From an uncultured delta proteobacterium (lineage in GTDB: Bacteria > Myxococcota_A > UBA9160 > SMWR01): DNA of 64,000 bases. A model generated the notes under the pieces. That model was not told the origin of the DNA. It saw nothing but the letters and a program-made list of their open reading frames with translations, and searched no databases. Of this stretch, positions 38,937 through 58,828 are shown in pieces. The stretch covers positions 640,001 to 704,000 of the forward strand of contig CAWHTE010000004.1 in NCBI GenBank assembly GCA_963832165.1. The letters run 5' to 3'. The position numbers were made by a program, and so were the translations under genes. The first letter of the stretch is position 1, and each line of letters starts with the position of its first letter.

Positions 38937-40268
38937 ATGGCGACTCGCGAGCGATACATCGACGACGACGCGGGGCAGGGCATCTTCCGCGTGTGCCGAC
39001 GGGCGTTCCTCGATCCGGACGTGCTCGCGGCCGAGCGCGAGCGGATCTTCGACCACGCCTGGCTCTATCTCGGGCACGAGTCCGAGGTGGCCGCGCCGGG
39101 TGATTTCCGCACGCGCGAGCTGGGCGCGCGCCGGATCGTGTTCGTGCGCGGCAAGGACCGCGCCGTGCGCGCGCTGCTCAACTCGTGCACACACCGCGGT
39201 GCCGAGGTGTGCCGCGAGCGCTCCGGGAACGCGCGGAGCTTCCAGTGCTTCTATCACGGCTGGACGTTCGGCAACGACGGGCGGCTGATCGGCGTGCCCG
39301 GCGACGAGGCCTACGCGCCCGGCTTCTCGCGCGAGCGGCTCGGGCTGCGCGAGGCGCCGCGGCTCGAGCAGTACCGCGGCTTCTATTTCGTGAGCTTCGA
39401 TCCCGAGATCGTCCCGCTGCGCGAATACCTCACGGGCGCGGCGGAATATCTCGACCTCATCGTGGACCAGTCCGAGCTCGGCATGGAGATCGTGGGCGGC
39501 ACGCAGTCGTATGCGATCAATGCGAACTGGAAGCTGCTCGTCGAGAACAGCTACGACGGCTACCACGCCAACGTCGCGCACGCGCGCTACCTGAAGTGGC
39601 TCGCGTCGACCGGAGCGGTCGGGCTGCCGCGTGGCACGACCTGGAACCGCGCGCGCTCGCTCGGCAACGGGCATGCCGTGGTCGAGTACACCGCCGCGTG
39701 GGGGCGCCCGATCGCGCACTGGGTGCCGTCTTTCGGCGAGGACGCCGCACCCGAGATCGCGGAGATCCGCGCGAAGCTCGAGGAGCGGCTGGGTGCCGAG
39801 CGCGCGCACCGGATCGCCACGACGAGCCGCAACCTCGGGATCTTCCCCAATCTCGTCGTGAACGACATCATGGCGATCACGGTTCGCACGTTCCATCCGA
39901 TCGCGCCCGGGCGCATGCATGTGGAGGCGTGGTCCCTCGCACCGCGCGGCGAGGCGCCCGCGCACCGCAAGCACCGGCTCGAGAACTTCCTGACCTTCCT
40001 GGGCCCCGGCGGGTTCGCGACACCCGACGACATCGAGGGCCTCGAGTCGTGCCAGCGCGCCTACCAGGGAACGCCCGAGGACTGGAACGACCTGTCCCGC
40101 GACGCGCTGAGGCCCGACCCGCCGATCACGGGCGAGCACCAGATGCGTACGTTCTGGCGACACTGGCAGGAGCGCATGACGCCGCAGAAGGCGCTCGAGG
40201 AGGCGCGCCAGCAAGTTTCGCGCAGCGAGCCAAAGGCGAGCGGAGACCAGCAGTATGCAGCCGGTTAG
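38937..40268 (+). CDS. Rieske aromatic ring-hydroxylating dioxygenase alpha subunit (benzoate/p-cumate-like)
   Basis: CTHRG...CFYHGW Rieske motif; NWKLLVENSYDGYHANVAH iron site; PDD. Confidence 0.93.
   Translation: MATRERYIDDDAGQGIFRVCRRAFLDPDVLAAERERIFDHAWLYLGHESEVAAPGDFRTRELGARRIVFVRGKDRAVRALLNSCTHRGAEVCRERSGNARSFQCFYHGWTFGNDGRLIGVPGDEAYAPGFSRERLGLREAPRLEQYRGFYFVSFDPEIVPLREYLTGAAEYLDLIVDQSELGMEIVGGTQSYAINANWKLLVENSYDGYHANVAHARYLKWLASTGAVGLPRGTTWNRARSLGNGHAVVEYTAAWGRPIAHWVPSFGEDAAPEIAEIRAKLEERLGAERAHRIATTSRNLGIFPNLVVNDIMAITVRTFHPIAPGRMHVEAWSLAPRGEAPAHRKHRLENFLTFLGPGGFATPDDIEGLESCQRAYQGTPEDWNDLSRDALRPDPPITGEHQMRTFWRHWQERMTPQKALEEARQQVSRSEPKASGDQQYAAG
40211..40249 (+). repeat. Intragenic ~40-bp repeat, copy 1
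   Basis: GCAAGTTTCGCGCAGCGAGCCAAAGGCGAGCGGAGACCA, read as QVSRSEPKASGDQ. Confidence 0.85.
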
Positions 40269-40770
40269 TGCGATCACGGCGCTTCCGGCCGCCGATCTCA
40301 CGCGCGGCGAGATCGAGGACTTCCTCTACGAAGAGGCGGCGCTGCTCGACGAGTGGCGGCTCGCCGAATGGCACGCGCTGTTCACGGAGGACGCGACCTA
40401 CCGGGTTCCCTCGACCGACGTGCCGGATGCCGACCCGGAAGACACCCTGTTCCTGATCGACGACGACGCGGCGCGGCTGCGCTCGCGCGTCGAGCAGCTG
40501 CTCGGCAAGTCGACCTGGTCCGAGAACCCGCACTCGCGCACGCGGCGGCTCGTCACGAACGTGCGGATCCGCAAGACCGAGGGCGCGCGCGCGTGGGTGA
40601 CGGCGAACTTCGCCGTCTACCGCATGCGCACGAACCAGGTCGCCACCTACGTGGGGCGCTACGAGTACGTGCTCGAGCGCCGCGGGGACGGCCTGCGCAT
40701 CGAGCAGCGACGCGCAGTCCTCGATCTCGAATCGCTGCGCGACGTCGGCAAGATCAGCTTCATCCTCTAA
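40255..40770 (+). CDS. Aromatic ring-hydroxylating dioxygenase beta subunit
   Basis: FLYEEAALLDEWRL, SENPHSRTRRLVTNV. Confidence 0.92.
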   Translation: MQPVSAITALPAADLTRGEIEDFLYEEAALLDEWRLAEWHALFTEDATYRVPSTDVPDADPEDTLFLIDDDAARLRSRVEQLLGKSTWSENPHSRTRRLVTNVRIRKTEGARAWVTANFAVYRMRTNQVATYVGRYEYVLERRGDGLRIEQRRAVLDLESLRDVGKISFIL

Positions 40771-40785
40771 AGGAGAACTTCAACC

Positions 40786-41565
40786 ATGGATCTGGGCATC
40801 GCGGGGCGCCGCGCGATCGTGTGCGGCGGCAGCAAGGGGCTCGGGCGCGGCTGCGCTGCGGCGCTCGCGCGCGAGGGCGTTCACGTCTGGATCGCCGCGC
40901 GGTCGGCCGAGGCGCTCGAACAGACCGCGCGCGAGCTCACGCGCGCAACCGGCTCCGTCGTCGACACCGTGTGCGCCGACGTGGCAACGCCGGAAGGGCG
41001 GGCGGCGATTCTCGCCGCGTGCGCGGACCCCGACATCCTGATCAACAACGCGGGCGGGCCGCCGCCGGGAAACTTTCGCAGCTGGTCGCGCGAGGATTGG
41101 ATCCGCGCGCTCGACACGAACATGCTCTCGGCGATCGAGCTGATCCGCGAGACGCTCGACGGCATGATCGAGCGCCGCTTCGGCCGCGTCGTGAACATCA
41201 CGAGCCACATGGTCAAGTCGCCGGTCGCCTTCCTCGGGCTCTCGAACGGTGCGCGCGCGGGGCTCACGGGCTTCGTGGGCGGTCTCGCACGCGACGTCGC
41301 CGCGCACAACGTCACGCTGAACAACCTGCTTCCGGGCGCGTTCGACACCGACCGGCTGCGCTCGAATCAGGAGAAGCTGGCCGCGGGGCGCAAGGTCGAC
41401 GTCGAGGACGTGCGCGAGCGCATGCGCGAGCAGATCCCGGCGCGGCGCTTCGGAACCCCCGACGAGTTCGGCGCCGCGTGCGCATTCCTGTGCAGCGCGC
41501 ACGCGGGGTACATCACGGGCCAGAACCTGCTGCTCGACGGCGGGCAGTTCCCGGGGCTGCTCTGA
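40786..41565 (+). CDS. SDR oxidoreductase
   Basis: MDLGIAGRRAIVCGGSKGLG, NNAGGPPPG. Confidence 0.9.
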   Translation: MDLGIAGRRAIVCGGSKGLGRGCAAALAREGVHVWIAARSAEALEQTARELTRATGSVVDTVCADVATPEGRAAILAACADPDILINNAGGPPPGNFRSWSREDWIRALDTNMLSAIELIRETLDGMIERRFGRVVNITSHMVKSPVAFLGLSNGARAGLTGFVGGLARDVAAHNVTLNNLLPGAFDTDRLRSNQEKLAAGRKVDVEDVRERMREQIPARRFGTPDEFGAACAFLCSAHAGYITGQNLLLDGGQFPGLL

Positions 41566-42821
41566 GGCTCCCCGACGACGCCGCGCGCGCGATCGCCGAT
41601 CCGCGCTCGTACGCGGAGTGGGACCGCCTGCACGAGACGCTGGCGCAGGTACGGCGCGAGTGGCCGTTCGCACGCGCCGAGCTGCCCGAGTACCCGCCGT
41701 TCTGGGTCGCCTCGCGGCTCGCCGACATCCGCGAGGTCGCGAGCCGGCACCGCGAGTTCCTGTCGGGACAGGGTGGCCTGTTGACGCGCGAGCAGCTCGC
41801 GTCCGAGCGGAGCCGCGGCGCAGGGCAGCTGTTCCGCTCGATCGTGGTGATGAACGAGCCCGAGCACGCGAAGTACCGCGACCTGACCCAGAGCTGGTTC
41901 CAGCGCGCGCCGCTGCGGCGCTTCGAGCCGCAGATTCGCGAGCTCGCGCGCCGGCACGTCGAGCGGCTCGCCGCGCTCGGCGGCGAGTGCGATTTCGCCC
42001 AGGAGATCGCGGCGCACTATCCGCTGCTGGTCGTGCTCGCGATCCTGGGCGTGCCCGAGGAAGACGAGCCGTTCATCCTGCGCCTCACGCGCGAGTACTT
42101 CGGAAACGCCGACGACGAGCTGAACCGCGGCCAGGTGAAGCGCTCGCCGGTCGAGGCGATCGCGTCGACGCGCGCCGTGATCGAGGAGGCCACGAAGTAC
42201 TTTGCCGAGCTCTCGGCGCAGCGCCGGCGCGCGCCGCGCGACGACCTCGCGTCGGTGGTCGCGAACAGCCGGATCGACGGCGAGCCCGTCTCCGACGTCG
42301 ATGCGATGGGCTACTTCGTCACGGTCGCGTTCGCGGGACACGACACCACGTCGTCCTCGGTCACGGGCGCGATCTGGGCGCTCGCCGAGCGGACCGATCA
42401 GCTCGCGCGCGTGCAGCGCGATCTCGCGCTGGTGCCGAGCCTCGTCGAGGAGGCCGTGCGCTGGACGACGCCGATCCACATGTTCGTGCGCCGGGCCGCG
42501 GTCGATGCGGAGGTCGCGGGCCAGCGCGTGGCGAAGGGCGAGCGCGTGGTGCTGTGCTTCCCGTCGGGCAATCGCGACGAGGAGGTGTTCCCGGACCCGT
42601 TCGAGTTCCGGGCCGATCGCCAGCCCAATCGCCACGTCGGGTTCGGGTTCGGCGCCCACGCGTGCCTGGGCGTGCACCTCGCGCGGATCGAGATGGGGAT
42701 CCTGTTCGAGGAGCTGCTGCCGCGGATCGCGTCGCTCGAGCTCGCGGGCGAGCCCAGGCGCACCGTGACGAACTTCGTCGGGGGTCCCAAGTCGCTGCCC
42801 GTGCGCGTGCGCCTGCGCTGA
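41562..42821 (+). CDS. Cytochrome P450 (start uncertain, possibly CTG)
   Basis: AGHDTT, EEAVRW, SGNRDE, heme motif FGFGAHACLG. Confidence 0.9.
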   Translation: MRLPDDAARAIADPRSYAEWDRLHETLAQVRREWPFARAELPEYPPFWVASRLADIREVASRHREFLSGQGGLLTREQLASERSRGAGQLFRSIVVMNEPEHAKYRDLTQSWFQRAPLRRFEPQIRELARRHVERLAALGGECDFAQEIAAHYPLLVVLAILGVPEEDEPFILRLTREYFGNADDELNRGQVKRSPVEAIASTRAVIEEATKYFAELSAQRRRAPRDDLASVVANSRIDGEPVSDVDAMGYFVTVAFAGHDTTSSSVTGAIWALAERTDQLARVQRDLALVPSLVEEAVRWTTPIHMFVRRAAVDAEVAGQRVAKGERVVLCFPSGNRDEEVFPDPFEFRADRQPNRHVGFGFGAHACLGVHLARIEMGILFEELLPRIASLELAGEPRRTVTNFVGGPKSLPVRVRLR

Positions 42822-42860
42822 TCGCGCCCGCTACTCTGCGCGCAGGAGGGAAGCGTCCCC

Positions 42861-43865
42861 GTGCAATACGTCACTCTCGGCTCCACCGGCATGAAGGTGT
42901 CGCGGCTGTGCCTGGGCTGCATGAGCTACGGCACGCCTTCGTGGCGGCCCTGGGTGCTCGACGAGGCCGCGTCCGCGCCGTTCTACCGCCGCGCGGTCGA
43001 GGCCGGGATCAACTTCTTCGACACCGCGGACATGTACTCGCTCGGCGAGAGCGAGGTGGTGACGGGCCGCATGTTGCGCGAGTACGCGGTCCGCGACGAG
43101 GTCGTGATCGCCACCAAGGTGTTCTTTCCGCACAACGACCGGCCGAACATGGGCGGGCTCTCGCGCAAGCACATCCAGCAGGCGTGCGAGGCGAGCCTGC
43201 GCCGGCTCGGCGTCGAGGCGATCGACCTCTATCAGATCCACCGGCTCGATCCCCACACGCCGATCGAGGAGACGCTGCGCGCGCTCGATGATCTCGTGCG
43301 CCAGGGCAAGGTGCGCGCGATCGGCGCGAGCTCGATGTACGCGTGGGAGCTCGGGCGTGCGCTCGCGATCTCCGATCGCGACGGTCTCGCGCGCTTCGCG
43401 ACCATGCAGAATCACTACAACCTCGTGTACCGCGAGGAAGAGCGCGAGATGATGCCGCTGTGCGAGTTCGAGGGGATCGCGGTGATGCCGTGGTCGCCGC
43501 TCGCGCGAGGTCTGCTCGCGGGCACGCGCCAGAAGCTCGGCGACGACTCGACGACGCGTTCCGCGAGCGACGGTCTCGACCAGTATCTCTACGACCAGCC
43601 GACCGACTGGGACGTCGTGGAGGCGGTCCGTTCCGTGGCCAAGCAGCGCGGCGTACCGCCCGCCCAGATCGCGCTCGCGTGGCTCGCCTCGCGGCCCGCC
43701 GTGGTCGCGCCGATTCTCGGCGCGACGAAGCTCGCCCACCTCGAAGACGGCCTCTGCGCGCTCGACATCGATCTCGAGCCCGCGGAGGTCGCGGCGCTCG
43801 AATCGCCGTACCGGCCGCATCCCGTGAAGGGGATCGCGCCGAAGTCGAGCATGCGGCGGCGATAG
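42861..43865 (+). CDS. Aldo/keto reductase
   Basis: LCLGCMSYG, FFDTADMYS, IDLYQIHR, PWSPLARG. Confidence 0.92.
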   Translation: MQYVTLGSTGMKVSRLCLGCMSYGTPSWRPWVLDEAASAPFYRRAVEAGINFFDTADMYSLGESEVVTGRMLREYAVRDEVVIATKVFFPHNDRPNMGGLSRKHIQQACEASLRRLGVEAIDLYQIHRLDPHTPIEETLRALDDLVRQGKVRAIGASSMYAWELGRALAISDRDGLARFATMQNHYNLVYREEEREMMPLCEFEGIAVMPWSPLARGLLAGTRQKLGDDSTTRSASDGLDQYLYDQPTDWDVVEAVRSVAKQRGVPPAQIALAWLASRPAVVAPILGATKLAHLEDGLCALDIDLEPAEVAALESPYRPHPVKGIAPKSSMRRR

Positions 43866-43872
43866 GACCACG

Positions 43873-45072
43873 GTGAAGCCGGCCTGGCTGCGCTCCTTCG
43901 CGAACGGGGTGCTCGCGCTCTCTGCGGCCGACGCCGTGGTGTCGGCGATCGACGAGGTGATCCGCGCCGCCACGGGATGGCACGGGCTCGCGATCCCGCG
44001 CAGCGCGATCGCGCAGCTCGCGCTGCTGGGGCTCGCCGCGAGCGTGCCGCTGATGCTCGCGACGCCGCGCCTGCCCGTTGCGGTGTTCCTGCCGCTCACG
44101 GCCGTGACCTTCTGGCTCACGCTCGGCGCAGCGCCACTCGGGCTCTGGATCGGATCGCCCGCGCTGCTCGCGGCGACGGGGTGCGCACTCCAGCTCGCGG
44201 CCGTGGCGCTCGCCTTCGCGCTGGTCCGCGCGCGAAACGGCGGGCGCGGCAGCTGGTTCACGGACGTGGGACCCGAACAGCCCGCGTTCGCGTGGCGCCA
44301 CACGCTCGCGTTCGGCGCCGCGCTCGCTCTGCTGGGCCCGGTCGTGACGGTCGGCTACGCCGCGCTCGCGCTCGCCACGTATGCCCAGGATGCCACGAAC
44401 GGCTTCATCCAGTTCGGTCTCGCGGGTGTCTCGCTCGCCGACCGCCACTACGAGCGCGACGGCCGCGAGATCCGGCTCGTCGGCATGATGCACATCGGCG
44501 ATGCCGAGAGGTACCGCTCGCTGATCCGCTCCTTTTCGCGCGAGTCGACGATCGTGCTCGCGGAAGGCGTCTCCGACCGCGAGGCGCGTCTCGGTAGCTC
44601 ACTGCACTACGGTCGCGCTGCGGAGGCGATCGGGCTCGCTCCCCAGCAGGATCTGACCGCCTATCTCGTCGACGACCCGGGGGCCGAGCCGCCGAAGTGG
44701 CCCGTCGTGCGTTATGCCGATGTCGACATGAGCGAGTTCTCGCCGGCGACGATCGCGTGCATCCAATGGGCGAGCCGGGTCTGGGAGGCCGAGGACCTGC
44801 GCAGCGCGCTGCTCGTGCTCGCGCGCGGCGTGCGCGAGCAGGATCCGGACGATCTCGCGACGTTCGAGGCCGAGGTGCTCGGGATGCGCAACGAACATCT
44901 CGTGGGCGAGATCGAGCACGCGCTCGAGGAGTATCAGCGCGTCGTCGTGCCCTGGGGTGCGCTGCATCTGCCTGCGATCGAGGAGGCCGTGCTGTCGTGG
45001 GGCTTCGCGGAGACCTCGCGCGAGCTGCACCCGCTCTTCGAGTGGCGCACGGTGGCCGCTGCGCTGTTCTGA
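43873..45072 (+). CDS. Membrane protein with C-terminal TraB/GumN-like domain
   Basis: Several N-terminal TM helices; LVGMMHIG, LAEGV, RN, PWGALH. Confidence 0.6.
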   Translation: MKPAWLRSFANGVLALSAADAVVSAIDEVIRAATGWHGLAIPRSAIAQLALLGLAASVPLMLATPRLPVAVFLPLTAVTFWLTLGAAPLGLWIGSPALLAATGCALQLAAVALAFALVRARNGGRGSWFTDVGPEQPAFAWRHTLAFGAALALLGPVVTVGYAALALATYAQDATNGFIQFGLAGVSLADRHYERDGREIRLVGMMHIGDAERYRSLIRSFSRESTIVLAEGVSDREARLGSSLHYGRAAEAIGLAPQQDLTAYLVDDPGAEPPKWPVVRYADVDMSEFSPATIACIQWASRVWEAEDLRSALLVLARGVREQDPDDLATFEAEVLGMRNEHLVGEIEHALEEYQRVVVPWGALHLPAIEEAVLSWGFAETSRELHPLFEWRTVAAALF

Positions 45073-45076
45073 ATTC

Positions 45077-45208
45077 GTAGGGCGGGAGGAGCCGCAGGCG
45101 GATCCCGCCATCGCGACGTTCCGCTCCCCTGGCATGGCGGGATCCGTCCGCCTGCGCATCTCCGACACCATCGCGAATGGCCGGGGAGGGGGGCTTCTCC
45201 CGCCCTAC
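45077..45208. repeat. REPIN-like element (two inverted GTAG-type REPs)
   Basis: Ends GTAGGGCGGGAGGAGCC and GGCTTCTCCCGCCCTAC; inner GGATCCCGCCAT/ATGGCGGGATCC inverted repeat; between convergent genes. Confidence 0.8.
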
Positions 45209-45214
45209 GAAGGA

Positions 45215-46717
45215 TCAGGCGCCGCGCTCGATCTTGACGACGAAGGCGTGCTCGCTCGTCGTTGCGAGGGATTGAGTGCCGCCGGCGGGCATGGTGATCA
45301 CGAGCTGACCGAGAAGGTTCCGCTTGTACGCGAGCGGTGCGCCGTTTCCGCCGAGCAGCGTCATGCGCGCGCCCTTCGGCACCGGGATCGGCAGCGTCAC
45401 CGTCATCTGCTTGCCCGGCCAGGCCGTCGACGTCACGTAGAAGACGTCACCCTTCGTGGTGAAGCGCAGGTTGAACTCTTCGGCGAAGGTCCAGGGCCGG
45501 GTGCCGTAGATCGCCTCGCCGTTGAGGGCGAGCCAGCGGCCGACGCCCCGCAGGCGCTCGGCCTGGGCTTCGGGCACGGTGCCGTCGGCCTTCGGGCCGA
45601 TGTTCAGCAGGAAGTTCCCGTTCTTCGACACGATGTCGACGAGCGAATCGACGATCTCGTTCGTCGTGAGCCAGTCCGCCTCGGTCTCCTGCTCGGTGTA
45701 GCCGAACGAGCTGCCGAAGCCGCGGGTCGCCTCCCACTTGCGCGCCTGCAGCAGGTTGACCGGCAGATACTCCTTCGTCTGGAAGTCGAAATGGGTGGTG
45801 TCGGTCGGAGCGTCGAGCACGAAATCGCCGCAGCGGTCGTTGACGACGACGCCTTCCGGGTTCGCGGTGGTCGCATGGTTGTAGTACTCGGCGATCCACT
45901 CGTTCGAGCGGTAGTACTGCTGGTTGCCGCCGATGTCGCACCAGAGGACGTACGGGCTGTACTGGTGGATCAGCTCGCGGATCTGCGGGATCACGTGATC
46001 GGTCGCGTAGTCGGCGATCGGCTTGTAGCCGGTGTAGGGCGCCGGCGTGCCCGTGTATGCGTTCTTGGCCTTGCCGCGGAACGCGAGCAGCTCGATCGCC
46101 GCCGTCAGCGGACTCGTCGACAGGCTCGGGTTCGGCGCAGGATTGAAGAACTCGGGGATCGAGTAGTAGAGGCCGGGCTTCACGACATCGCCGCGAGCGT
46201 GCGAGGCGTCCATGAGCTCGCCGACGAAGTTGCGCCCGGGGCCGTAGTTCACCGTGTGGCGGTCGGTCGTCGCGGTCGGAAACAGCGCGAGCCCGTCATG
46301 GTGCTTCGTGACGAAGACGAAGTAGCGCGCGCCGGCATCCTCGAAGAGGTCGATCCACTCGTTGGCGTCGAAGTTCTCCGCCTGCCATTGCGGAATGAAG
46401 TCGTCGTAGAGGACGTTCGGACCGTAGGTCGAGAGATGGTGCGACCAGGCCGGAGACAACTTCTGCTGCTGGAAGAACCAGTACCACTCGGCGTAGCCGA
46501 TCACCGGTACGCCCTTGGTCGCATAGGCGGGAATCGCCGCGGCGGTCCAGTGGATGAAGATTCCGAACTTGCCGTCCTGGTACCACGCGGGGACCGGATG
46601 CGTTCGCAGCGACGCAAGCGTCGGCTGATACACCGGATCCGCCGCCGCGGTCGCGCCGGTGAGTCCGGCGGCGAAGAGCCAGGACACGAGCAGCGCAACA
46701 CCGATCCGGTTCGTCAT
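45215..46717 (-). CDS. Alpha-L-fucosidase (GH29)
   Basis: Signal peptide; KFGIFIHW, TKHHDG, LWCD, VVNDR, SKNGNFLLNIGPKADG, NGEAIYGTRPW. Confidence 0.93.
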   Translation of the reverse strand: MTNRIGVALLVSWLFAAGLTGATAAADPVYQPTLASLRTHPVPAWYQDGKFGIFIHWTAAAIPAYATKGVPVIGYAEWYWFFQQQKLSPAWSHHLSTYGPNVLYDDFIPQWQAENFDANEWIDLFEDAGARYFVFVTKHHDGLALFPTATTDRHTVNYGPGRNFVGELMDASHARGDVVKPGLYYSIPEFFNPAPNPSLSTSPLTAAIELLAFRGKAKNAYTGTPAPYTGYKPIADYATDHVIPQIRELIHQYSPYVLWCDIGGNQQYYRSNEWIAEYYNHATTANPEGVVVNDRCGDFVLDAPTDTTHFDFQTKEYLPVNLLQARKWEATRGFGSSFGYTEQETEADWLTTNEIVDSLVDIVSKNGNFLLNIGPKADGTVPEAQAERLRGVGRWLALNGEAIYGTRPWTFAEEFNLRFTTKGDVFYVTSTAWPGKQMTVTLPIPVPKGARMTLLGGNGAPLAYKRNLLGQLVITMPAGGTQSLATTSEHAFVVKIERGA

Positions 46718-46782: not shown

Positions 46783-48351
46783 CTAAGACTCGCCGATCAC
46801 GCCGCCGTCGCGCAGGCGGTGCTTCTGCACCTTGCCCAGCGCGTTGCGCGGCAGCACCTCGACCGCATGCAGCAGGCGCGGCTGCTTGTAGGGCGCGAGC
46901 CGGTCCGCGAGGAACGCGCGCAGCTCGGCGAGATCGGGCGGAGCAGGGCCCTCGACGTAGGCCGTCACCACCTCGCCCCATTCCGGCGACGGCGTCCCGA
47001 CCACCGCGGCGTCCGCGATCGCGGGATGCGCGCGCAGCGCGTCCTCGACCTCGCGCGGGTACACGTTGTAGCCGCCGCTGATGATGAGCTCCTTCGCGCG
47101 GCCCGTGATCCGCAGATAGCCGGCCGGATCGAGCTCGCCGAGATCGCCCGTGCGGAACCAGCCGTCGGGTGTGAACGCCTCCGCGTTGGCGTCGGGACGC
47201 TCCCAGTAGCCCGCGAACACGTTCGGGCCGCGCACCTCGATCTGCGCGGGTGAGCCAGCCCGATGGTCTTCGCTCGCCTTCGGCTCGCTGCGCGCAACTT
47301 GCGTTAGTCGCACCTCGACGCCGGGCAGCGGCAGCCCGACCGTGCCGGGCCGGCGCTCGCCGTCGACGGGGTTCGACACCAGCATCACGGTCTCGGTCAT
47401 GCCGTAGCGCTCGAGTATGCGCTGGCCGCACGCGCGCTCGAACTCCGCGTGTTGGTCCGCGGGCAGTGCGGCCGAGCCCGACACGCACAGGCGCAGCGCG
47501 CGCAGCGCGTGCGCGTTCCCGGATGCGAGGATCCGGTGGTACATCGTGGGCACGCCGAAGAAGAGCGTTGCACGCGCGCGCGCGATCGCGCTCGCAACCG
47601 CATCCGGGTCGAATTGCGGCAGGAGCCACGCCGACGCGCCCGCATGGAGCGTGCCGTGCAGGCCCACGCCGAGCCCGTGCATGTGGAAGAGCGGCAGCGC
47701 GAGCACGAGGCGATCGTCGGCGGTCCAGCGCCACGCGATCCGCAGCGACTCGGCGCTCGCGAGCAGGTTCGCGTGCGAGAGCACGGCGCCCTTCGGGCGG
47801 CCCGTCGTGCCGGACGTGTAGCCGATCAGCGCGGGCGCATCGGGCGCGGCGGCGTCGAGCGCAGGCGGCTCCGCGTCGGGAAACGCGAGTGCGGGCGTCG
47901 TGCACAGCAGTGCGCGATCGGCCGCGCGCAGCGCGTCGATGCGCGCGGGATCGTCCGCGATCGCGGCGCGCGGGCGCGCATCGCCCACGAGGTGGGCGAG
48001 CTCGGCCGCGCGATAGGCGGTGTTCGCGGGCACCACGACGAGCCCGAGGCGCAGACACGCGACGTGCGCCACGACGAGATCGAGCGACGCCGCGGCCGAA
48101 ACGAGCACGCGGTCGCCCGCGCGCAGACCCGCGCCGTGGAGGCGGCCGGCCGCGCGCCGGCTCGCCGCGTCGAGCGCGCCGTAGCTCTGCTCGTCGCCGC
48201 GCTCGTCGCAGAGCGCCACGCGGTCGCTCGCGCGCGCGAAGTGACGCGCCCAGCTGCGCGGCAGCGTTCCGGCGCCGCCCGCGGTGGGATCGAATGCGGT
48301 GCCATCTTCGTAGGGCGGATTAGCGCGAAGGGCGTAATCCGCCAAATCCAA
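46783..48351 (-). CDS. Acyl-CoA synthetase (MatB/malonyl-CoA synthetase-like)
   Basis: YTSGTTGRPKG, LPLFHMHGL, ERYGMTE, WFRTGD, PRNALGKVQK. Confidence 0.92.
   Translation of the reverse strand: MDLADYALRANPPYEDGTAFDPTAGGAGTLPRSWARHFARASDRVALCDERGDEQSYGALDAASRRAAGRLHGAGLRAGDRVLVSAAASLDLVVAHVACLRLGLVVVPANTAYRAAELAHLVGDARPRAAIADDPARIDALRAADRALLCTTPALAFPDAEPPALDAAAPDAPALIGYTSGTTGRPKGAVLSHANLLASAESLRIAWRWTADDRLVLALPLFHMHGLGVGLHGTLHAGASAWLLPQFDPDAVASAIARARATLFFGVPTMYHRILASGNAHALRALRLCVSGSAALPADQHAEFERACGQRILERYGMTETVMLVSNPVDGERRPGTVGLPLPGVEVRLTQVARSEPKASEDHRAGSPAQIEVRGPNVFAGYWERPDANAEAFTPDGWFRTGDLGELDPAGYLRITGRAKELIISGGYNVYPREVEDALRAHPAIADAAVVGTPSPEWGEVVTAYVEGPAPPDLAELRAFLADRLAPYKQPRLLHAVEVLPRNALGKVQKHRLRDGGVIGES
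47261..47303 (-). repeat. Intragenic ~40-bp repeat, copy 2
   Basis: CGCAAGTTGCGCGCAGCGAGCCGAAGGCGAGCGAAGACCATCG, read as QVARSEPKASEDHR. Confidence 0.9.
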
Positions 48352-48354
48352 CCG

Positions 48355-49581
48355 TCACGACTCCTCGGCCACTCCGAAATGATCGCAGTAGAACGCGAAG
48401 CGCCGGCGCTCGACGAGCGGGTCGAGCCCCATCTCCTCGAGCGAGTAGTGGTGCACGCCGTGCGCGCCCTGCGGCTTGCGCGCCACGTAGTCGACCACCG
48501 TCTGGCGCAGCGTGGGCGCCATGCGCCAGCCGAGCGCCGCGTAGATCCGCTCGACCGTGCCGCCCGGATCGGCGACCAGATCGGCATAGCGCACGTCGAC
48601 GAAGCGCTCGTCGGGGAGCTCGCCGTGCGCGCGCTGCTCGATCTGGCGCCGGTAGATGGTGGCGTAGCCCGCGGCCGTCGCCTCGGCGCCCGCTGCGGGA
48701 TCGGACACCTCGCAGCGCATCCACTTGAGCGTGCCCATCAGCGAGAGCGAGGAGGGGATCGTCTTGAGCGGATCGCGGTGGGTCTGGATGATGTGCGCCT
48801 CGGGGTAGACCGCGAATAGCGCCCGCAGCTGGAAGAGATGGCTCGGCGCCTTGAGCAGCCAGCGTTCAGCGCGCGCGCGCTGCTGCAGCGTCTGCAGGAC
48901 GCGCCGGTGATAGCGGTAGGCGGGGCGCTGATCGGCCTTGGCGAGGTAGGTCTGATAGGTGGGGACGTGGTGGCAGCCGCCCCACTGATCCGACAGGAAC
49001 TCGTTCATCGTGATGAAGATGCACTCGTTCGGGAGGTCGCCCGCGTTGGCATGCATCGCCTCGTACTCGGGCTGGAGGTCGTGCCAGAACGTGGTCTCGG
49101 CATCGCCCACGGCGCGCAGCGCGTCGTTCGCGAGCGCCTCGACCGGATGCAGCATCTCCCACATCACGGGCGCGCGATGCGCGGGGTCGAGCGCGAGCAG
49201 CTCGTGCAGGATCGAGGTTCCCGAGCGCGGGCTCCCGACCACGAACACGGGTGGGTGGATCGGATCGCGCAGGATCTCGGGCCGGCGACCCCACAGCTCC
49301 GCGAGCTGGAGCCGGTTGCGCAGCGTGCGCAGGATCTCCGCGCGCGCGAGCAGGCGGCCCGCGAGGTGCAGGTGTGCCTCGCGCTCGAGCGCCGCCACGA
49401 GCACGTCGAAGTGCGCGCGCCACTCGTCGCCGCCGAAGTCGTCGAGACCCGTGTCGCGGCGCGCCGTGGTGATCAGCTCGTCCGGATCGAGCGACACGAG
49501 TGCCTTCGCGCCGCCCGCCGCGGGTCCGTGCGCGTTCAGGCGCTGCATCCAGCGCGGTCGCTGCGGCGGCTTCCAGGGCAT
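48355..49581 (-). CDS. Sulfotransferase family protein
   Basis: PAPS-binding VVGSPRSGTSILHELL; WLLKAPSH; IQTHRDP. Confidence 0.9.
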   Translation of the reverse strand: MPWKPPQRPRWMQRLNAHGPAAGGAKALVSLDPDELITTARRDTGLDDFGGDEWRAHFDVLVAALEREAHLHLAGRLLARAEILRTLRNRLQLAELWGRRPEILRDPIHPPVFVVGSPRSGTSILHELLALDPAHRAPVMWEMLHPVEALANDALRAVGDAETTFWHDLQPEYEAMHANAGDLPNECIFITMNEFLSDQWGGCHHVPTYQTYLAKADQRPAYRYHRRVLQTLQQRARAERWLLKAPSHLFQLRALFAVYPEAHIIQTHRDPLKTIPSSLSLMGTLKWMRCEVSDPAAGAEATAAGYATIYRRQIEQRAHGELPDERFVDVRYADLVADPGGTVERIYAALGWRMAPTLRQTVVDYVARKPQGAHGVHHYSLEEMGLDPLVERRRFAFYCDHFGVAEES

Positions 49582-49604
49582 CCGATCTCTCGCGCTAGCG
49601 CGGA

Positions 49605-49991
49605 TTACTTGAGGAGCTGAACCAGGATCAGAGTTGCCAGCGACCGCCACGAAGAACGCCGCCGTGCGCAGGTAGGGCACGCGCGATGTAGATGAACGTA
49701 TAGCGAGCCGACCCCAGAAGAATAGGGTGGCTCCGAGCGCGGTTGCCCCGTTGGCCTTGCCCGCAACATGGGCGACGAGCACCAGAATCGCGAAGAAAGC
49801 CAGATTCTCGGTCGTGTTGGCATGCGACCGGATCGCTCTGGAAACCCAGGGGCCACGTCGAGGCCCGTATCGCGATTGCCAAACGCCCACGCCACGCCGC
49901 CCGGAACACGAGAGCGACCGACGAGATAGATCAGGGGAATCAGCGCCGACCACAAGCCCGTGGCTACGAGCATCCAGAGATCAGTTGTCAT
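49605..49991 (-). pseudogene. MAPEG family membrane protein with several frameshifts (decay or sequencing error)
   Basis: Fragments AWAFGNRD, RAIRSHANTTENLAFFA and VPYLRT lie in different frames. Confidence 0.7.
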
Positions 49992-50386: not shown

Positions 50387-50410
50387 GGCTGTCCTCCACG
50401 TGGGCTGACG

Positions 50411-51468: not shown

Positions 51469-51485
51469 GGTGTGAAGGGCTACTG

Positions 51486-51941: not shown

Positions 51942-51987
51942 GGCTCGCGAAGGTCTGTCCACCGCTGCACATTGTATTAAGCACTTG

Positions 51988-52422: not shown

Positions 52423-52439
52423 GGATTTCTCCCTCGTAG

Positions 52440-52482
52440 TGGAGCGCGCTTGGCTCGGCAGCCGCAGCGCCTTGCGCGGCGG
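52440..52482 (-). mobile_element. Truncated/degenerate attC (left arm only)
   Basis: CCGCCGCGCAAGGCGCTGCGGCTGCCGAGCCAAGCGCGCTCCA closely matches the left arm of the attC at 54998. Confidence 0.6.
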
Positions 52483-53104
52483 ATTCGCGAACCGCGGATT
52501 CGAGCTTCGGGAGAAACTCCCGAAGCAGTTCCCGCAAGCTGTCTGACATGGTGACTCGCATCGCCTGCTTGATGAAACCCGCACTCGAGCCCGTGTACTC
52601 GGCATCCGCATCGGTAACGACTCGATCCACGCGTTCTGCCAAGAGGGTCCTCTCGCCTTCTCGGAGCGTGAATTCCAGAGAGGTGATGCCGGCCACACGG
52701 ATGAATAGGAAGCCGACCGCCTGGGAGCAAAAGGCGCGAACCCTGCTTTCCAGCGTGAGAGGCGGCGACACCGTGGTCGCAGTATGGACCTTTGAGAACA
52801 GGCCTGAGTTCTCGATCTCGCGCGCAAGCTCATCTTGAATGATGCGACTTGCTGCGTCACCCCAGAACGTATCGCTTCGACATCCCGTCCAACGGGTCGA
52901 GGCTACGGGCTCACCATAGTGATCTTTCCGAGAGTCAACGGGCAACGGTACATAGAGGACACGGTGATCTCGGTGCTGGGAACGAAAGCCCGAGTCGGTG
53001 TGATGAAAGGTGCCGGCCGCCCCTGGAACCCGGGCCGCACCTCGGTTGCAGGCGACTACCGACATGAGAACGATCGCAGCAATACGGACGCACACGATGT
53101 TCAT
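52475..53104 (-). CDS. Hypothetical lipoprotein, cassette gene (natural stop apparently lost; ORF reads on to 51977)
   Basis: Lipobox VVAC; ATG just after GTTAGGC; protein-like sequence ends at the degenerate attC. Confidence 0.55.
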
Positions 53105-53115
53105 TGCATTCCGCC

Positions 53116-53140
53116 GCCTAACTCTTGATGGACTGCGTCC
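53116..53140 (-). mobile_element. attI-like site 2
   Basis: GGACGCAGTCCATCAAGA-GTTAGGC: GTTRRRY core without attC arms; similar to the site at 57226-57251. Confidence 0.5.
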
Positions 53141-53256
53141 TCCGGGCATCCAACGCCGCGACGAACCGCAGCCGATTGTAATTGCGGGAAGACGGGGTCG
53201 GGAGCTTTCCGTCTGAAACGTCTATCCGCTCCGTGGCCGAGGGGGTAGAGTCGGTT

Positions 53257-54309
53257 GTGCGGTGGCTCCCGGCCCGTCTCCTCGCCGGCTTCGCGACGCT
53301 CGTGGCGTCGGTCGCTTCCGCCAACCCCTGGTCCACGCGCGCGCCGCTGCTCGAGGCGGTGCAGGAGGTCGCGGTCGCCGAACTCGGCGGCAAGGTCTAC
53401 GTGGTGGGGGGCCTCCAGGGCACCGCGATCCTGAACCGGGTCGAGGTCTGGGACCCGGTCGCCGATGCCTGGAGCTATGTCGCGACACTCCCGATCCCGC
53501 TCCACCACACGACGGCGACGGCCGTCGGCGGCAAGCTCTACGTGATCGGGGGCTGGCCCAACTTCTTCGCCACGCCGACCGCCCGCGTCTTCGCCTACGA
53601 CCCGGGCGCGAACTCGTGGACGGAGAAGACGTCGATGCCGACTGCGCGCGGCTCGCCGGCGGCCGCCGCCGTGGGCGGGAAGATCTACGTCGCGGGCGGC
53701 GACCCCGGCGCGACCGACTTCGCCGTCTACGATCCGGTCCTGAATACGTGGCAATCGCTTCCGGCGATGCCAACCGGGCGCCAGCACCTCGCCGCCGTGG
53801 GAATCGGCGGGCGCTTCTACGCGATCGCAGGTCGCACGAGCCTCGGCGCCGGCCAGGACAACGTCGCCGCCTTCGAGGTCTACGACCCGGGCACGGGCCT
53901 GTGGAGCGCCCTTGCCCCGATCCCGACGGCGCGGAGCGGCCTCGCGGCCGCCGTCGCGCACGATCGCTACGCCGTGGTCCTTGGCGGCGAGGGCAACGAC
54001 GCGAGCCCGTCCGGCGTCTTCGGCGAGGTCGAGGCCTACGACACCGTCGCGGGTCAGTGGATCGGGCTCACGCCGATGCCGACGCCGCGGCACGGGATCG
54101 GCGCCGCGAGCCTCGGCCGCCGCATCCACGTGCCGGGGGGAGGTCCGCAGGAAGGCTTCGGCCTGAGCGCCGTCCACGAGGTCTACGATTCGAGCCAGGA
54201 GTTCGTCGCGCCCCCCATTCCTGCGCTCGGGGCGGCGGGCCTGCTCGCGCTCGCCCTGGCACTCGCGGGCGCGGGGCTGCTCGTCGTGCGCGCGCGGGGC
54301 TCGCGCTAG
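53257..54309 (+). CDS. Kelch-repeat beta-propeller with IPTL-CTERM-like tail
   Basis: Six GGK(V/L/I)YV.GG...YDP..W repeats; tail PPIPALGAAGLLALALALAGAG..R. Confidence 0.88.
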   Translation: MRWLPARLLAGFATLVASVASANPWSTRAPLLEAVQEVAVAELGGKVYVVGGLQGTAILNRVEVWDPVADAWSYVATLPIPLHHTTATAVGGKLYVIGGWPNFFATPTARVFAYDPGANSWTEKTSMPTARGSPAAAAVGGKIYVAGGDPGATDFAVYDPVLNTWQSLPAMPTGRQHLAAVGIGGRFYAIAGRTSLGAGQDNVAAFEVYDPGTGLWSALAPIPTARSGLAAAVAHDRYAVVLGGEGNDASPSGVFGEVEAYDTVAGQWIGLTPMPTPRHGIGAASLGRRIHVPGGGPQEGFGLSAVHEVYDSSQEFVAPPIPALGAAGLLALALALAGAGLLVVRARGSR

Positions 54310-54339
54310 GCGAGTATTCAGCAGCTCGCCCCGGCCTCA

Positions 54340-54855
54340 CTAGGCGGCAGGCTCGAGGATGAGGGCCATAGGGAGGGCGTCCACGAAGGCGCCATCGACC
54401 TCGACTGCCCCGCGGCGGCATCCCTCTACCACGAAACCCTTTCGCTCGTAGAGCCGACGCGCTCTGGGATTGTTCGAAAGAACCTCGAGCTCCAGTCTTC
54501 GGATCGATCGATGCTTCGCCCATGTGATCGCGGCGTCTAGAAGTCGAGACCCAATGCCTTGACCTCGGTAGGGCGCGAGCACGGACATGCCAAGACTTGC
54601 CCCGTGAGCGGTTTGCGGACGCTCGTGGTGCGCCGCTACTCCAAGATTCGCAACGATGCGGTCGCCGATTGTCGCTACGAAGAATTCCGCGTGCTCCCCT
54701 GCGAATTGGCGAATGAAGGCAGTTTCTTCCTCTAGCGTCGGGACGCTGTCGTAGCGGAAGATTGTTGGTAGGCGTTCCGCACGGAGAGCCGTAACGTAGT
54801 CAATGAGTGCGGGTACGTCGCGCTCTCCGGCACTACGGATCGTGATCGTAGGCAT
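54340..54855 (-). CDS. GNAT family N-acetyltransferase (cassette gene)
   Basis: LGMSVLAPYRGQGIGSRL, NPRARRLYERKGF; ATG a few bases after the attC R' core. Confidence 0.88.
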   Translation of the reverse strand: MPTITIRSAGERDVPALIDYVTALRAERLPTIFRYDSVPTLEEETAFIRQFAGEHAEFFVATIGDRIVANLGVAAHHERPQTAHGASLGMSVLAPYRGQGIGSRLLDAAITWAKHRSIRRLELEVLSNNPRARRLYERKGFVVEGCRRGAVEVDGAFVDALPMALILEPAA

Positions 54856-54863
54856 TCCCTGTC

Positions 54864-54998
54864 GCATAACGGACCGGCGCTTAGCTGCGAGCCACAGTGC
54901 CTCCGCAGCCGGTTCGAAGCGCCCGAGGTCGATGCGAAACGGTACCATGGATCGATTGGAACGCGCTGTGGCTCGGCAGCTGCAGCGGCTTGTTGAGC
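54864..54998 (-). mobile_element. Integron attC site
   Basis: R'' GCTCAAC, L'' GCTGCAGC, arms GCTGCCGAGCCACAG/CTGTGGCTCGCAGC, L' GCTAAGC, R' GTTATGC. Confidence 0.88.
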
Positions 54999-55042
54999 GG
55001 CGGGCCGCTCGACCTGTCTACTACTACGGAGAGATCTGTCGG

Positions 55043-55638
55043 ATGTCGGAATCTGCAGATCAACACCCTCCGATCCGGGCGCCGCTTGGCGATGTGATGA
55101 CCGATCGGCTCGAGCTTCGGAAATTCCGCTCGGAGATCTCGATGAGCTGGCGGTAGTGTTCGAGAAGCCCGAGGTCTGGAGGTTTCCGTACGGGCGGGGC
55201 TTCACGCGCGAGGAGACAGCTGCCTTTTTGGAGACGCAACTCGCGGAGTGGAGCACCTGTGGATTCGGGTGCTGGCTCGCTCGGGAACGCAAGAGCGATC
55301 GAGTCGTCGGCTACGTAGGACTATCCGTTCCGGTCTTTCTTCCTGCGATTCTGCCCGCCGTGGAGGTTGGATGGCGCTTCGATCCCGGGGTCTGGGGCAG
55401 GGGTTATGCGAGCGAAGGTGCACGTGCCGCCCTCGCAGAGGCATTTGCCACACTGGGACTGAGCGAGGTCTGCTCGGTTCCCCAGGCAGACAATCCGGCG
55501 TCGAGCCGAGTCTGCGAGCGTCTTGGGATGCGCTTTGAGCGGGAGGTAGTGATACCAGCCAACGCGCGGCGAGGGATGCTTGCGGGCCTGCTCTACAAGA
55601 TGTCGCGAGCTGCATGGTCGGCAGCGGTTCAGGGTTGA
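55043..55638 (+). CDS. RimJ/RimL-type GNAT acetyltransferase, antisense to cassette direction (frameshift near 55135)
   Basis: TDRLELRKFR, then VEVGWRF..WGRGYASE and NPASSRVCERLGM in another frame. Confidence 0.8.
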
Positions 55639-55679
55639 ACCGCTTCTTGCGCTGCGCCTCCACCTCGGTCGTTCCCGCC

Positions 55680-55795
55680 GCCCAACGTCTGGCCGCTAAG
55701 CTGCGGCCGCGCGCGATGCTACCAAGACCCGTGTTGGCTCAGGCCACCCGTCGAACTTGAAGCCCGTGGCCGGCAGCTTCAGCGGCTTGTTGGAC
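55680..55795 (-). mobile_element. Integron attC site
   Basis: R'' GTCCAAC, L'' GCTGAAGC, L' GCTTAGC, R' GTTGGGC, with complementary arms. Confidence 0.88.
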
Positions 55796-55804
55796 GGCGC
55801 CACA

Positions 55805-57170
55805 CTACACCGTTGGTCTGACATTGTTGTTCAGGTGGAACAAGTTCGTCGGATCGAGCCTGTTCTTCAGCGCGACGAGCCGTGCGTAGTTCGGCCCGTA
55901 CGCGTGCTCGACCGCGCCTTCGGTCTCGTCCTCGGTCTGGTAGTTCACGTAGGACTCGCGGGCCATGTGGGGGCGCAGCGCATCGTAGGTGGCGCGCGCC
56001 CACGCGATGTTCTTCTCGTCGTCCTTCGGGTCGAGCCACTGGGAGACGACCAGCAGGTTGTAGCTCTCGCGCCGGTGAGGGAACGCCGTCTCGCCGACGC
56101 CGACCCGTGCGGCGGCCCCATGGAAGTGCTCGAGAACGAGCCCGCTCATCGGCGAGGGGCAGACCGCGAACTGCGCGATGAGCGCGTCGATCGCCTCGTC
56201 GCTGAGTTCCGCGAGGAAGCTCGACTTCCAGTAGTTCCTCGCACCGCGGGGGAAGCCCGGGTCGAAGAGCTTCGTGTTCGTGTCCACGTAGCTCGCGGGG
56301 CCGATGGTGTCGACCACGGGCGACCGAACCGCTTGATCGGCCGGGTCGCCGCTTCGCCCTCGGCCAGCGAGCCGCAATGACACGCGACGATCGCCGCCAG
56401 AGGTACGCCCGAGCCGTCGGGGGCGATGCAACAGTCCACCGTAGAGCGTGAGCTCGTCGGGCACGGAAGAGGTGACCTCGCGGAAGAACTGCAGCACGTC
56501 GCGCGCGCGTTCAATAGGGTGGGCCACGAGGCCGCTCGTGACCGGCCCCACCGGATGCAGCCGGTACTCGAACCACGAGACCACGCCGAAGTTCCCTCCC
56601 CCGCCCCGCAGCCCCCAGAACAGATCGCGGTCTCCCTCGGCGCTCGCCCGCACGACGTCGCCCGCAGCGGTGACGACCTCCGCAGAAATCAGGTTGTCGG
56701 CGGCGAGCCCGTGCTTGCCCATGAGCCAGCCGAGCCCGCCTCCGAGCGTAAGACCCGCGATTCCGGTCGTCGAGACGACGCCTCCGGTCGTGGCGAGGCC
56801 ATGGAGCTGGGTCTCGCGGTTAAACTCGCCCCACGTCACGCCTCCCTGGGCGCGCACCGTGCGGTGCCCGGGATCGACGTGGATGCCCTTCATCAGCGAG
56901 AGGTCGAGCATCAACCCGCCTTCGCAGACGGACTTCCCCGCGACGCTGTGACCGCCGCCGCGGACGGCGAGCTCGAGTTCGTGCGTGCGCGGCGAATCGA
57001 ACGGCGTCAATGACATCGGCGGTCCCGAGGCAGCGAGCGATCAGGGCCGGACGGCGGGCGAACATGCCGTTGTGGATGCGACGCACTTCGTCGTAATCAG
57101 CGTCGGTGGGCGTGAGGACGCCGCCGCGCAGGCTGGCCCGGAGATCGTTGAGCGCTGCTTCCTTGACCAT
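55805..57170 (-). CDS. FAD-binding oxidoreductase (berberine-bridge-enzyme-like), cassette gene, with several frameshifts
   Basis: YDEVRRIHN..RPALIARC; VRGGGHSVAG; DLFWGLRGGGGNFGVV; YVNY; LKNRLDPTNLFHLN; GAGGA RBS. Confidence 0.85.
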
Positions 57171-57225
57171 GGGTTTCCTCCTCTCTCAGCCCGCAACCGG
57201 CTTTGCCAGATCGCTGCTTGGCGCC

Positions 57226-57251
57226 GTCCAACTGTTAATGGATTGCGAGCC
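57226..57251 (-). mobile_element. attI-like site 1 heading the cassette array
   Basis: GGCTCGCAATCCATTAACA-GTTGGAC; the downstream TTGGACGGCGC is exactly complementary to GCGCCGTCCAAC at that cassette's attC. Confidence 0.6.
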
Positions 57252-57337
57252 CGATGGTAAACGCTGCGAGAGCTCGCAGCCTATTTGCTGGGTCGCGGTG
57301 GAGAGGTTCGGAAATCGCGTTGCTGGGGGCGATCCGC

Positions 57338-57357
57338 AACTGGATTTGAATCCAGTT
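57338..57357. promoter_or_regulatory. Perfect palindrome matching the CTG-N10-CAG LexA/SOS-box pattern
   Basis: AACTGGATT-TG-AATCCAGTT, about 100 bp from the attI-like site. Confidence 0.5.
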
Positions 57358-57595
57358 CGGGGAGCAAACGCTTGCGAACGTGCGAAGGCGTCGGGTTACG
57401 CCGAGGCGCGTCGGTGCCCGTGGGAGATCGAGGGAAAACAACGGGTTGGCGGCGAGGCGTCGTGCGGCCCCGGCGGGTCCCCGGCGGCGCGTGACCGCCT
57501 TCGTTTTCAGCGCGTGAGGCTCCTGCGGGGAAACGCCAGGATCGCCCAGGCGGGGCGATCGGCGGCCGGCCGTCTCCGAATGGCGGGGCGCCTTG

Positions 57596-58828
57596 CTAGC
57601 GGTAGCGGTTCCAGACCGCTTCGCGGCGGCGCGCGAGCTGTGCGCGCCGCGCTTCGGGCGTCACCGTGGGATGGTCGGGCGGCATCGCCTTGCGCACGGC
57701 GTCGAGCGACACCACGTGTGCGCGCGGTACCGGATTGGTGCGCGCCCACACCCAGCGGTACACGAGCAGGCCGCGCTGTCTCTCTTCGGTGTCGATCCAG
57801 TTCGGTGTCGCGGGATCGCGATGCGCGACGACGATCCGGATCACGCCATCGCCGTCGACGTGGGTCTGATGATCGTTCAGGCTGATCTGGCGGCGATCGA
57901 ACTCGCCGGTCTCGAGCCAGGGCAGGGTGTGGGTGACGAAGTTCCAGTAGTCGGCGTCGGGTCGCTCGACCTCGAGCACGAGCGCCTCGTCGGGCTCGAG
58001 ATTCCAGAAGCAGCTCCCGTACAGGATGTTGTCCGCGCCTCCGGGGGCGCTGCGCGCCGCGGCGGCCGCGTTCGGCGTCGCACGCGCCCAGCCCTGGCCC
58101 GTGTAGCGGCTCCAGTAGTCGACCGACGCCTCCACCCAGCGCGCGGTGCGCTCGAGCGCCGCCGCGAGCGCGCCCGGGTCGAGCAGCGGACGCGGCTCGC
58201 CCTCGGCGCCGACGCGCTCGATCTGGAAGATCGGCAGCACGTCGCGCTCCCAGTCGGACTGGTACAGACGGATCGTGAAGATGCGCGCGCGCGGATCCAG
58301 CTCGATGCAGTGCCCCTCGCCCACTCGATGGTCTTCGCTCGCCTTCGGCTCGCTGCGCGAAACTTGCGCAGACCCCTTCGGCACGAGCCAGATCTCGAGG
58401 CCGCCGTCGCTCGCGAGCGGCAGCTGGTCGAGCGAGCGCTCGCCGAACACGCCGTACTCGGAGAGCTGCATGTCGCCCTCGTGCAGCGAGAAGATCGCCT
58501 GGCGCAGGCCGCGCGCGTCGCGCGTCCACACGCGATAGGCGAGGCTCGGGTCGACGTTCGCGCGCAGGTAGATGTTGTCGGGGTTGGGGCCGCCCCACTG
58601 GTTCCAGGGGTTCTGATGGCTCACGAAACCCGGGAAGCGCGGATCGCCGGCTTCGATCTCCTGCTGCGCGGCGTAGATCAGCCAGCGCATGACCGCGCGG
58701 TAGCCCTCGCTGCGCGCGCGCGGGTCCGCGAAATCGCCGCTCTGGAGCCGCTCGCCGATCGCCTCGAGGCGGCTGCAGAACGCGCGCCACGCGGAGCCGT
58801 CGAGCAGCGCAGCGCCGGCGTCGGACAT
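57596..58828 (-). CDS. DUF1214-domain protein
   Basis: SAWRAFC, WGGPNPDNIY, IRLYQSDW, LEPDEALVLE, IVVAHRDP..PNWIDT. Confidence 0.8.
   Translation of the reverse strand: MSDAGAALLDGSAWRAFCSRLEAIGERLQSGDFADPRARSEGYRAVMRWLIYAAQQEIEAGDPRFPGFVSHQNPWNQWGGPNPDNIYLRANVDPSLAYRVWTRDARGLRQAIFSLHEGDMQLSEYGVFGERSLDQLPLASDGGLEIWLVPKGSAQVSRSEPKASEDHRVGEGHCIELDPRARIFTIRLYQSDWERDVLPIFQIERVGAEGEPRPLLDPGALAAALERTARWVEASVDYWSRYTGQGWARATPNAAAAARSAPGGADNILYGSCFWNLEPDEALVLEVERPDADYWNFVTHTLPWLETGEFDRRQISLNDHQTHVDGDGVIRIVVAHRDPATPNWIDTEERQRGLLVYRWVWARTNPVPRAHVVSLDAVRKAMPPDHPTVTPEARRAQLARRREAVWNRYR
58326..58368 (-). repeat. Intragenic ~40-bp repeat, copy 3
   Basis: CGCAAGTTTCGCGCAGCGAGCCGAAGGCGAGCGAAGACCATCG, read as QVSRSEPKASEDHR. 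Confidence 0.9.

Follow-up and report, generated by a model that had tools for sequence, protein, structure and literature searches.

The stretch analysed here, a window of 64,000 nucleotides from contig CAWHTE010000004.1 of an uncultured bacterium, carries three near-identical copies of a short repeat, each lying within a different and unrelated gene. The first occupies 40211-40252 on the forward strand, in the C-terminal tail of the Rieske alpha subunit of a ring-hydroxylating dioxygenase (38937-40268, +), and the gene for the beta subunit (40255-40770, +) starts 2 nt past its core. The second lies at 47261-47302 (−) in a MatB-like acyl-CoA synthetase, a malonyl-CoA synthetase (46783-48351, −), and the third at 58326-58367 (−) in a gene for a DUF1214-like protein (57596-58828, −). 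All three are in the sense orientation and in the same frame, each reading QVxRSEPKAS, and the second and third differ by one base. An earlier note, made from the sequence alone, had described them as near-identical copies of a repeat of about 40 bp; the three cores were re-found in the window and are real, but the unit is longer, consisting of a 42-nt core (the A-type) followed by a tail of about 6 nt. The tail position of copy 2, six bases 3' of the core, is 47255-47260 (−), and copy 3 has a G-rich tail at 58320-58325 (−) with no match to the empty allele of a congener, G004.

Alignment with orthologs supported the proposal that the peptide is an insertion in the synthetase and the DUF1214-like protein. 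The former is 15 amino acids longer than its same-genus orthologs (4 of 4; net +45 nt) and the latter 14 amino acids longer (again 4 of 4; net +42 nt), and the peptide is carried by none of the five synthetase and eight DUF1214-like homologs aligned. The host of copy 3 itself matches DUF1214 at a sub-cutoff score (E = 0.0035), although of 13 homologs aligned with it, 11 match the domain. In most homologs of the Rieske protein the tail is shorter by about 14 amino acids, and its peptide was also found in two proteins besides the query among the first 46 matches listed; because these two, 80-82% identical, share the tail, the Rieske insertion is probably older and inherited. In an AlphaFold model of the DUF1214-like protein (13-sequence alignment, mean predicted local distance difference test score, pLDDT, 85), the sole segment with pLDDT below 50 comprises residues 157-171 and the insert residues 155-168, while the site in the MatB-like enzyme is a loop of variable length, in agreement with the suggestion that the repeat colonises loops and termini.

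A dispersed family of hairpin repeats

The repeat is far more abundant than expected by chance. A scan for the core pattern of the genome to which the window belongs (G000, 89% complete) yielded 143 matches, compared with 7 for the reversed control, comprising 83 A-type, 34 B-type, 21 C-type and 5 other elements; a stricter scan of the same genome found 96 copies of the 42-nt A-type, and a 23-nt pattern gave 133 exact matches, its reversed control giving 0. A loose pattern (266 matches, control 97) was kept out of these counts, as were 15 further loci.

The consensus starts with GCAAG and finishes in the G-rich tail. In every type the GCAAG head is followed by a first hairpin that varies in length and is reduced in type A to a 3-base loop, then by the constant linker and the second hairpin. 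The stem of the second hairpin covaries, with 106 CC-GNA-GG and 46 GC-GNA-GC among 157 matches, around an invariant G-N-A loop, and hairpins with tandem GA outnumber those of an AG control by 160 to 5. In single-stranded DNA, GNA triloops and tandem sheared G.A pairs form stable motifs.

Distribution of the family across the class is patchy. The 23-nt pattern is present in 28 of 41 genomes (the present one and 40 relatives) at 0 to 326 copies, and varies within the genus from 1 to 139, the genome with a single copy being G001; in a sample of the phylum it was found in 11 of 27 genomes of the same class and in 2 of 123 others. Database records with the exact A-type are mostly titled Myxococcota, and plasmid and phage records gave no match. 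Two loci lie in viral contigs (L128 and L129) with no nuclease adjoining, and in each a tandem pair of cores stands beside the same small gene. At another locus (L032), four tandem 42-nt units are nested in a fifth on a contig labelled as another phylum, through either horizontal spread or mis-binning.

A fourth member of the family, absent from the earlier note, is present in the window: a B-type element of 97 nt at 13883-13979 (+), directly after the overlapping stop and start (ATGA) at the beginning of a CutA1 gene (13879-14298, +). It is predicted to encode an N-terminal extension of CutA in an Arg-rich frame, and the Pfam match begins at residue 40, past the repeat-encoded stretch. Elsewhere in the genome, an A-type copy lies in frame in a radA-like gene just past the Walker A motif (G000:C7:403565), and the ATP synthase gamma gene (G000:C7:395312-396280) holds a family member, as does the same loop in G031, of another family (L261); the ATP synthase gamma gene of G020 is free of the repeat, a copy being found instead in the atpG-atpD spacer. 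A search of Rfam matched only a cobalamin riboswitch in the window (10873-10997, −), the repeat itself giving no match. The window also contains a 15-bp tandem repeat in an open reading frame (ORF), encoding NEPPA units (2094-2303), and an open frame at 48355-49953 (−) in which a MAPEG match precedes a sulfotransferase, either a fusion or two genes.

Insertion geometry

Filled and empty alleles were compared between G000 and G004. Among 80 sites of G004, 73 could be placed in G000, where 64 proved to be empty; reciprocally, 27 of 95 G000 sites have both flanks in 1.3 Mb of G004 DNA (overlaps included), and 21 are empty. The repeat is thus a mobile one, as had been supposed. Net lengths near one unit at the G004 sites were 42 (12 sites), 39 (5), 45 (3), and 36, 37 and 43 (1 each), with 84 at four further sites; in the reciprocal comparison, 42 was found at 3 sites and 45 at 5.

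When the junctions of 15 net-42 sites were scored for identity to the empty allele, 66 of 90 bases matched at positions −6 to −1, 33 of 90 at +1 to +6 and 285 of 345 at +8 to +30, and the two sides differed significantly (Fisher p = 1.2e-6). The left junction is therefore sharp, while to the right of the core the filled allele mismatches the empty one before collinearity resumes. Because it is the first six bases right of the core that mismatch, a unit of about 48 nt likely replaces about 6 nt of target, giving a net gain of 14 codons and no target duplication. The G of the consensus tail was counted at five positions in 57 of 75 cases in filled alleles and 35 of 75 in empty ones; since empty targets carry fewer of these bases, the tail is not a target motif. 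Targeting of Shine-Dalgarno sequences was rejected, the empty alleles being without a G-rich motif, as was templating of the tail by fold-back, since the strongest covarying pairs do not link the core end with the tail.

Many copies sit within older ones. Of the 96, 30 lie inside existing hairpin repeats (22 in the element's own second hairpin, 3 in its own first, 2 in tandem and 3 in GTAG-tagged repetitive extragenic palindromic (REP) sequences). Where copies nested in the second hairpin were measured (n = 28), the net length was 42 in 16, 44 in 8, 45 in 3 and 41 in 1, with the tail replacing loop bases, and 9 of 14 tandem spacings were 42. Target duplications were not in excess at offsets 0 and 5; the surplus seen at offsets 6 and 7 (8 vs 1.7 and 9 vs 2.1), in counts from which nested copies were not separated out, probably comes from those copies. 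The ends of the repeat are not complementary, so that terminal inverted repeats are lacking.

Reading frame and orientation

In G000, 34 of 95 A-type sites fall in the interior or at the C-terminus of an ORF, and the corresponding figures for G004, out of 77 classified sites, are 37 sense and 1 antisense. The frames used by the ORF-embedded copies of the two genomes (n = 71) were ASFAQRAEGERRP in 30, QVSRSEPKASEDH in 39 and KFRAASRRRAK in 2, both of the last being doubtful calls. This distribution departs from equal use (p = 1.5e-7), the two common frames not differing from each other (p = 0.34). The earlier claim that the repeat is always read in one frame thus fails genome-wide, and the single frame of the window is a small-sample effect; by simple arithmetic from the genome-wide split, a single frame would be expected in about a quarter of all sets of three copies. 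The +42 product is stop-free in all six frames, and because the left-flank preference predicts near-equal use of the six (0.13-0.20), the gap in frame use is probably due to selection. The rare frame is the Arg-rich one, with a net charge of +6, which is avoided inside proteins (2 of 71). In keeping with selection, it does occur among candidate N-terminal fusions, 6 of 13 using it, the cutA copy of the window among them.

The sense bias noticed in the window was borne out by the genome-wide count, with 70 sense and 21 antisense copies between co-oriented genes and 22 and 1 inside genes. Orientation driven by the replichore was rejected, as sense copies predominate on either replichore strand (28:4 and 12:6). 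Antisense copies occupy longer spacers than sense copies (median 131.5 vs 82 nt, p = 0.026), and Rho is present in the genome. Sense bias is not universal across the family: in G014, of another genus and with a longer subfamily, none of the 29 copies classified from the first 30 loci is ORF-internal and 14 of the 29 point towards the 3' end of an antisense gene, as scored with the G000 gene model. Members of this subfamily (L144-L170), which is lengthened by a conserved extension of about 34 nt, often abut the stop codon of an antisense gene.

Relation to known repeats and route of insertion

In-frame insertion of repeats is in itself already known. Rickettsia palindromic elements (RPEs), as described in two reports (PMC10969869, PMC3733652), are dispersed structured repeats found in frame in unrelated housekeeping genes as well as between genes, with no enzyme of their own identified there. 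The present repeat resembles them in its in-frame insertion into unrelated, intact genes whose orthologs are without it. In contrast to RPE-1, of about 150 bp and with a conserved peptide, and to the CGTC-tagged RPE-4 and RPE-6 (PMC10969869, PMC3733652), it measures about 48 nt, has no tag, uses two frames instead of encoding one peptide, and is found in a GC-rich, Myxococcota-labelled lineage. Like the GTAG- and CGTC-tagged REPs, intragenic ones included, that are treated in PMC3733652, it is a short, dispersed hairpin repeat, present in over 100 copies, mainly extragenic and nested in palindromes. It differs from them in that its copies stand head to tail or nested rather than as inverted dimers, no RAYT flanks it, convergent spacers are rare (7 of 120), and a tag-like tetramer occurs near the ends of 18 of 96 copies and is not a consensus feature.

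With REPINs and their RAYTs (PMC3116915) and with the substrates of IS200/IS605-type TnpA (PMC6006769), the repeat shares a predicted single-stranded hairpin substrate mobilised in trans, and the 6-nt tail parallels the asymmetric excision of REPINs, in which the last ~6 bp are left behind (PMC3116915). It has, however, no inverted doublet, guide tetranucleotide or cognate gene, and its last six bases are absent from empty alleles; close copies are direct tandem or nested, and the inverted pairs listed in the genome have unrelated genes in between. NTS/SRM repeats, possible substrates of the single-stranded DNA nucleases of the Ssn GIY-YIG group (PMC11893778), are likewise dispersed hairpins, but none of the 96 copies matches the SRM pattern and no small GIY-YIG gene is flanked by the repeat. 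Mycobacterial interspersed repetitive units (MIRUs), of 40-100 bp, also occur in dozens of copies in operons with frames overlapping their neighbours, but have 4-nt direct repeats and imperfect terminal inverted repeats (PMC3184786), whereas the present repeat makes no duplication and target bases appear to be lost. The repeat therefore works like RPEs and intragenic REPs but lies outside the tagged, RAYT-linked, SRM, terminal-repeat and target-duplication, and single-peptide families, since the features that define each were lacking. It was not described in the literature searched, which was mostly open-access and did not extend to supplementary material (for instance, the REP tables in PMC3733652), and appears to be a new untagged family of REP/RPE-like hairpin repeats with an unusual insertion geometry.

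We consider it probable, with odds of about two in three, that the repeat is a mobile, non-coding hairpin element of about 48 nt, pasted by a nuclease with the loss of about 6 target bases and tolerated as 14 extra codons. Its purine-rich strand would fold as single-stranded DNA hairpins and be acted on in trans by a putative hairpin-reading nuclease, HUH/RAYT-like or Ssn-like, which would attach the exact 5' end at a nick in the target and close about 6 bases downstream, the G-rich tail being supplied by the donor element in place of about 6 target bases. Since the +42 product is stop-free, the 14 codons would be tolerated in protein loops and termini, and selection after insertion would remove antisense copies from operons and Arg-rich peptides from protein interiors. 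More tentatively, and at less than even odds, this would amount to a previously undescribed 'paste-over' pathway, in which a dedicated single-stranded DNA enzyme recognises the GNA-triloop and tandem-GA scaffold and puts a 48-base cargo in the place of about 6 bases of the target.

Several observations weigh against this interpretation. Net lengths of 39, 43, 44 and 45 occur beside 42, the junction identities come from the 15 net-42 sites alone, the empty alleles belong to another species with flanks about 79-93% identical, and at one site (C4:289175) the match to the empty allele begins already from +1. Nested composites may themselves have been copied. The flanks of 72 non-nested copies form no left-right stem, so that most targets are not obvious hairpins, and standard DNA folding of the repeat gave a z-score that was not significant, an uninformative result in that ViennaRNA does not model the GNA and G.A motifs. 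Genes were called with a self-trained dicodon model, which makes the frame and strand counts approximate, and 9 of the 73 mapped sites are filled in both genomes, so that the frame counts are not wholly independent.

The search for a cognate HUH/RAYT enzyme, which the earlier note had recommended, counts on the same side, none having been found in the genome or in the searches made of its relatives. The 89%-complete genome has 12 Y1 HUH matches, one a RAYT and 11 of a solo family, and the repeat lies within about 500 nt of none of them. The RAYT (G000:C4:535405-535842; L130) is flanked by its own, different array of GTAG REPs, of which the genome holds two families with about 60 and 68 matches. 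The solo family consists of one gene at G000:C2:485111-485860 and 10 diverged paralogs, of about 230 amino acids and several with short inverted ends. It has 5-21 matches in 8 of the 41 genomes and none in the rest, being present in the three relatives of highest copy number (G013, G014 and G017), not found in G003, G004 and G005, with 76-139 repeats each, and present in G015, which has 0 repeat matches. A search of the 41 genomes with the profile NF047646 found nothing specific to the repeat. No Ssn-type GIY-YIG, DUF559 or reverse transcriptase (RVT_1) gene was detected in the genome, the sole GIY-YIG match lying in a 625-amino-acid frame. Genes flanked on both sides by the repeat revealed nothing specific, and the genes adjoining the repeat in five low-copy genomes and at 20 cluster loci are ordinary ones.

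The lack of a cognate nuclease in the genome or beside these sampled copies favours spread by host repair or replication, through template switching or gene conversion, with a return offset of about 6 bases after entry of a 3' end and no dedicated enzyme. Nesting and tandem arrays could arise from homology between copies, and the replaced tract is of variable length. We nevertheless regard such a route as rather unlikely, given that nearly all copies have an exact 5' end while the left preference is weak, that targets have no homology to the tail, that the structural positions hardly vary and show covariation, as sites read by a protein should, and that copy number swings widely among relatives. 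Somewhat less doubtful, though still improbable, is the idea that the sense bias was set at insertion, by exposure of the non-template strand during transcription, rather than by later selection. The bias is seen alike in 5' regions, operon spacers, ORF interiors and 3' ends, no replichore effect is needed, and old copies persist in housekeeping operons; yet 21 of 91 spacer copies between co-oriented genes are antisense and favour long spacers, and the position of nearly half the classified G014 copies at antisense 3' ends fits it poorly.

The repeat might instead be a domesticated, MIRU-like mRNA element supplying ribosome-binding or coupling signals in operons. The G-rich tail lies 10-16 nt before the next start in 19 of 52 non-nested copies, and three B-type copies directly follow an ATGA overlap. 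Copy 1, inserted between the old GGAGG of the beta subunit (40199-40203) and its ATG at 40255, has moved that motif 42 nt away and bears a rare GGAG variant (4 of 96 copies) 13 nt before the ATG. Individual copies such as this one may have been co-opted; as an account of the family we judge it unlikely, for sites are mostly lineage-specific, GGYGG is not enriched genome-wide at ribosome-binding distance, P0003, a homolog that shares the Rieske insertion, has the common residue where copy 1 has the GGAG variant, and the motifs resemble DNA rather than RNA structure. The lineage-wide peptide tag QVxRSEPKAS suggested earlier draws on a frame used by all three window copies and by 39 of the 71 embedded ones, and on the retention of the Rieske insertion in three homologs. 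It is largely refuted, and very improbable, as another hydrophilic frame is used 30 times, most copies are non-coding, the hosts are unrelated, orthologs are without the peptide and G001 has one copy. That the copies are assembly chimeras is hardly credible: a search of sequencing runs listed none holding this organism and none of RNA, and in four runs no bridging contig was found among those listed, though many contigs had the repeat with other flanks; but at the sites the flanks are collinear with those of orthologs and the reading frame is preserved, certain sites are occupied in both genomes, and the Rieske insertion is present in two further database proteins.

Pairs of filled and empty alleles, which bear on how small REP-like repeats reach new sites, are rare. 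The pairs described here point to insertion with the loss of about 6 target bases, unlike the duplications left by miniature inverted-repeat transposable elements and MIRUs or the clean insertion of IS200/IS605 elements. A net length that is a multiple of three, together with six open frames, explains entry into core genes, among them radA and, for the longer types, atpG, and the frame census is a natural readout of the 14-mers that proteins tolerate. If the paste-over pathway were true, it would need no homology, leave no duplication and make a fixed edit of +14 codons, and would constitute a natural mutagen for in-frame loop insertion across a class of Myxococcota.

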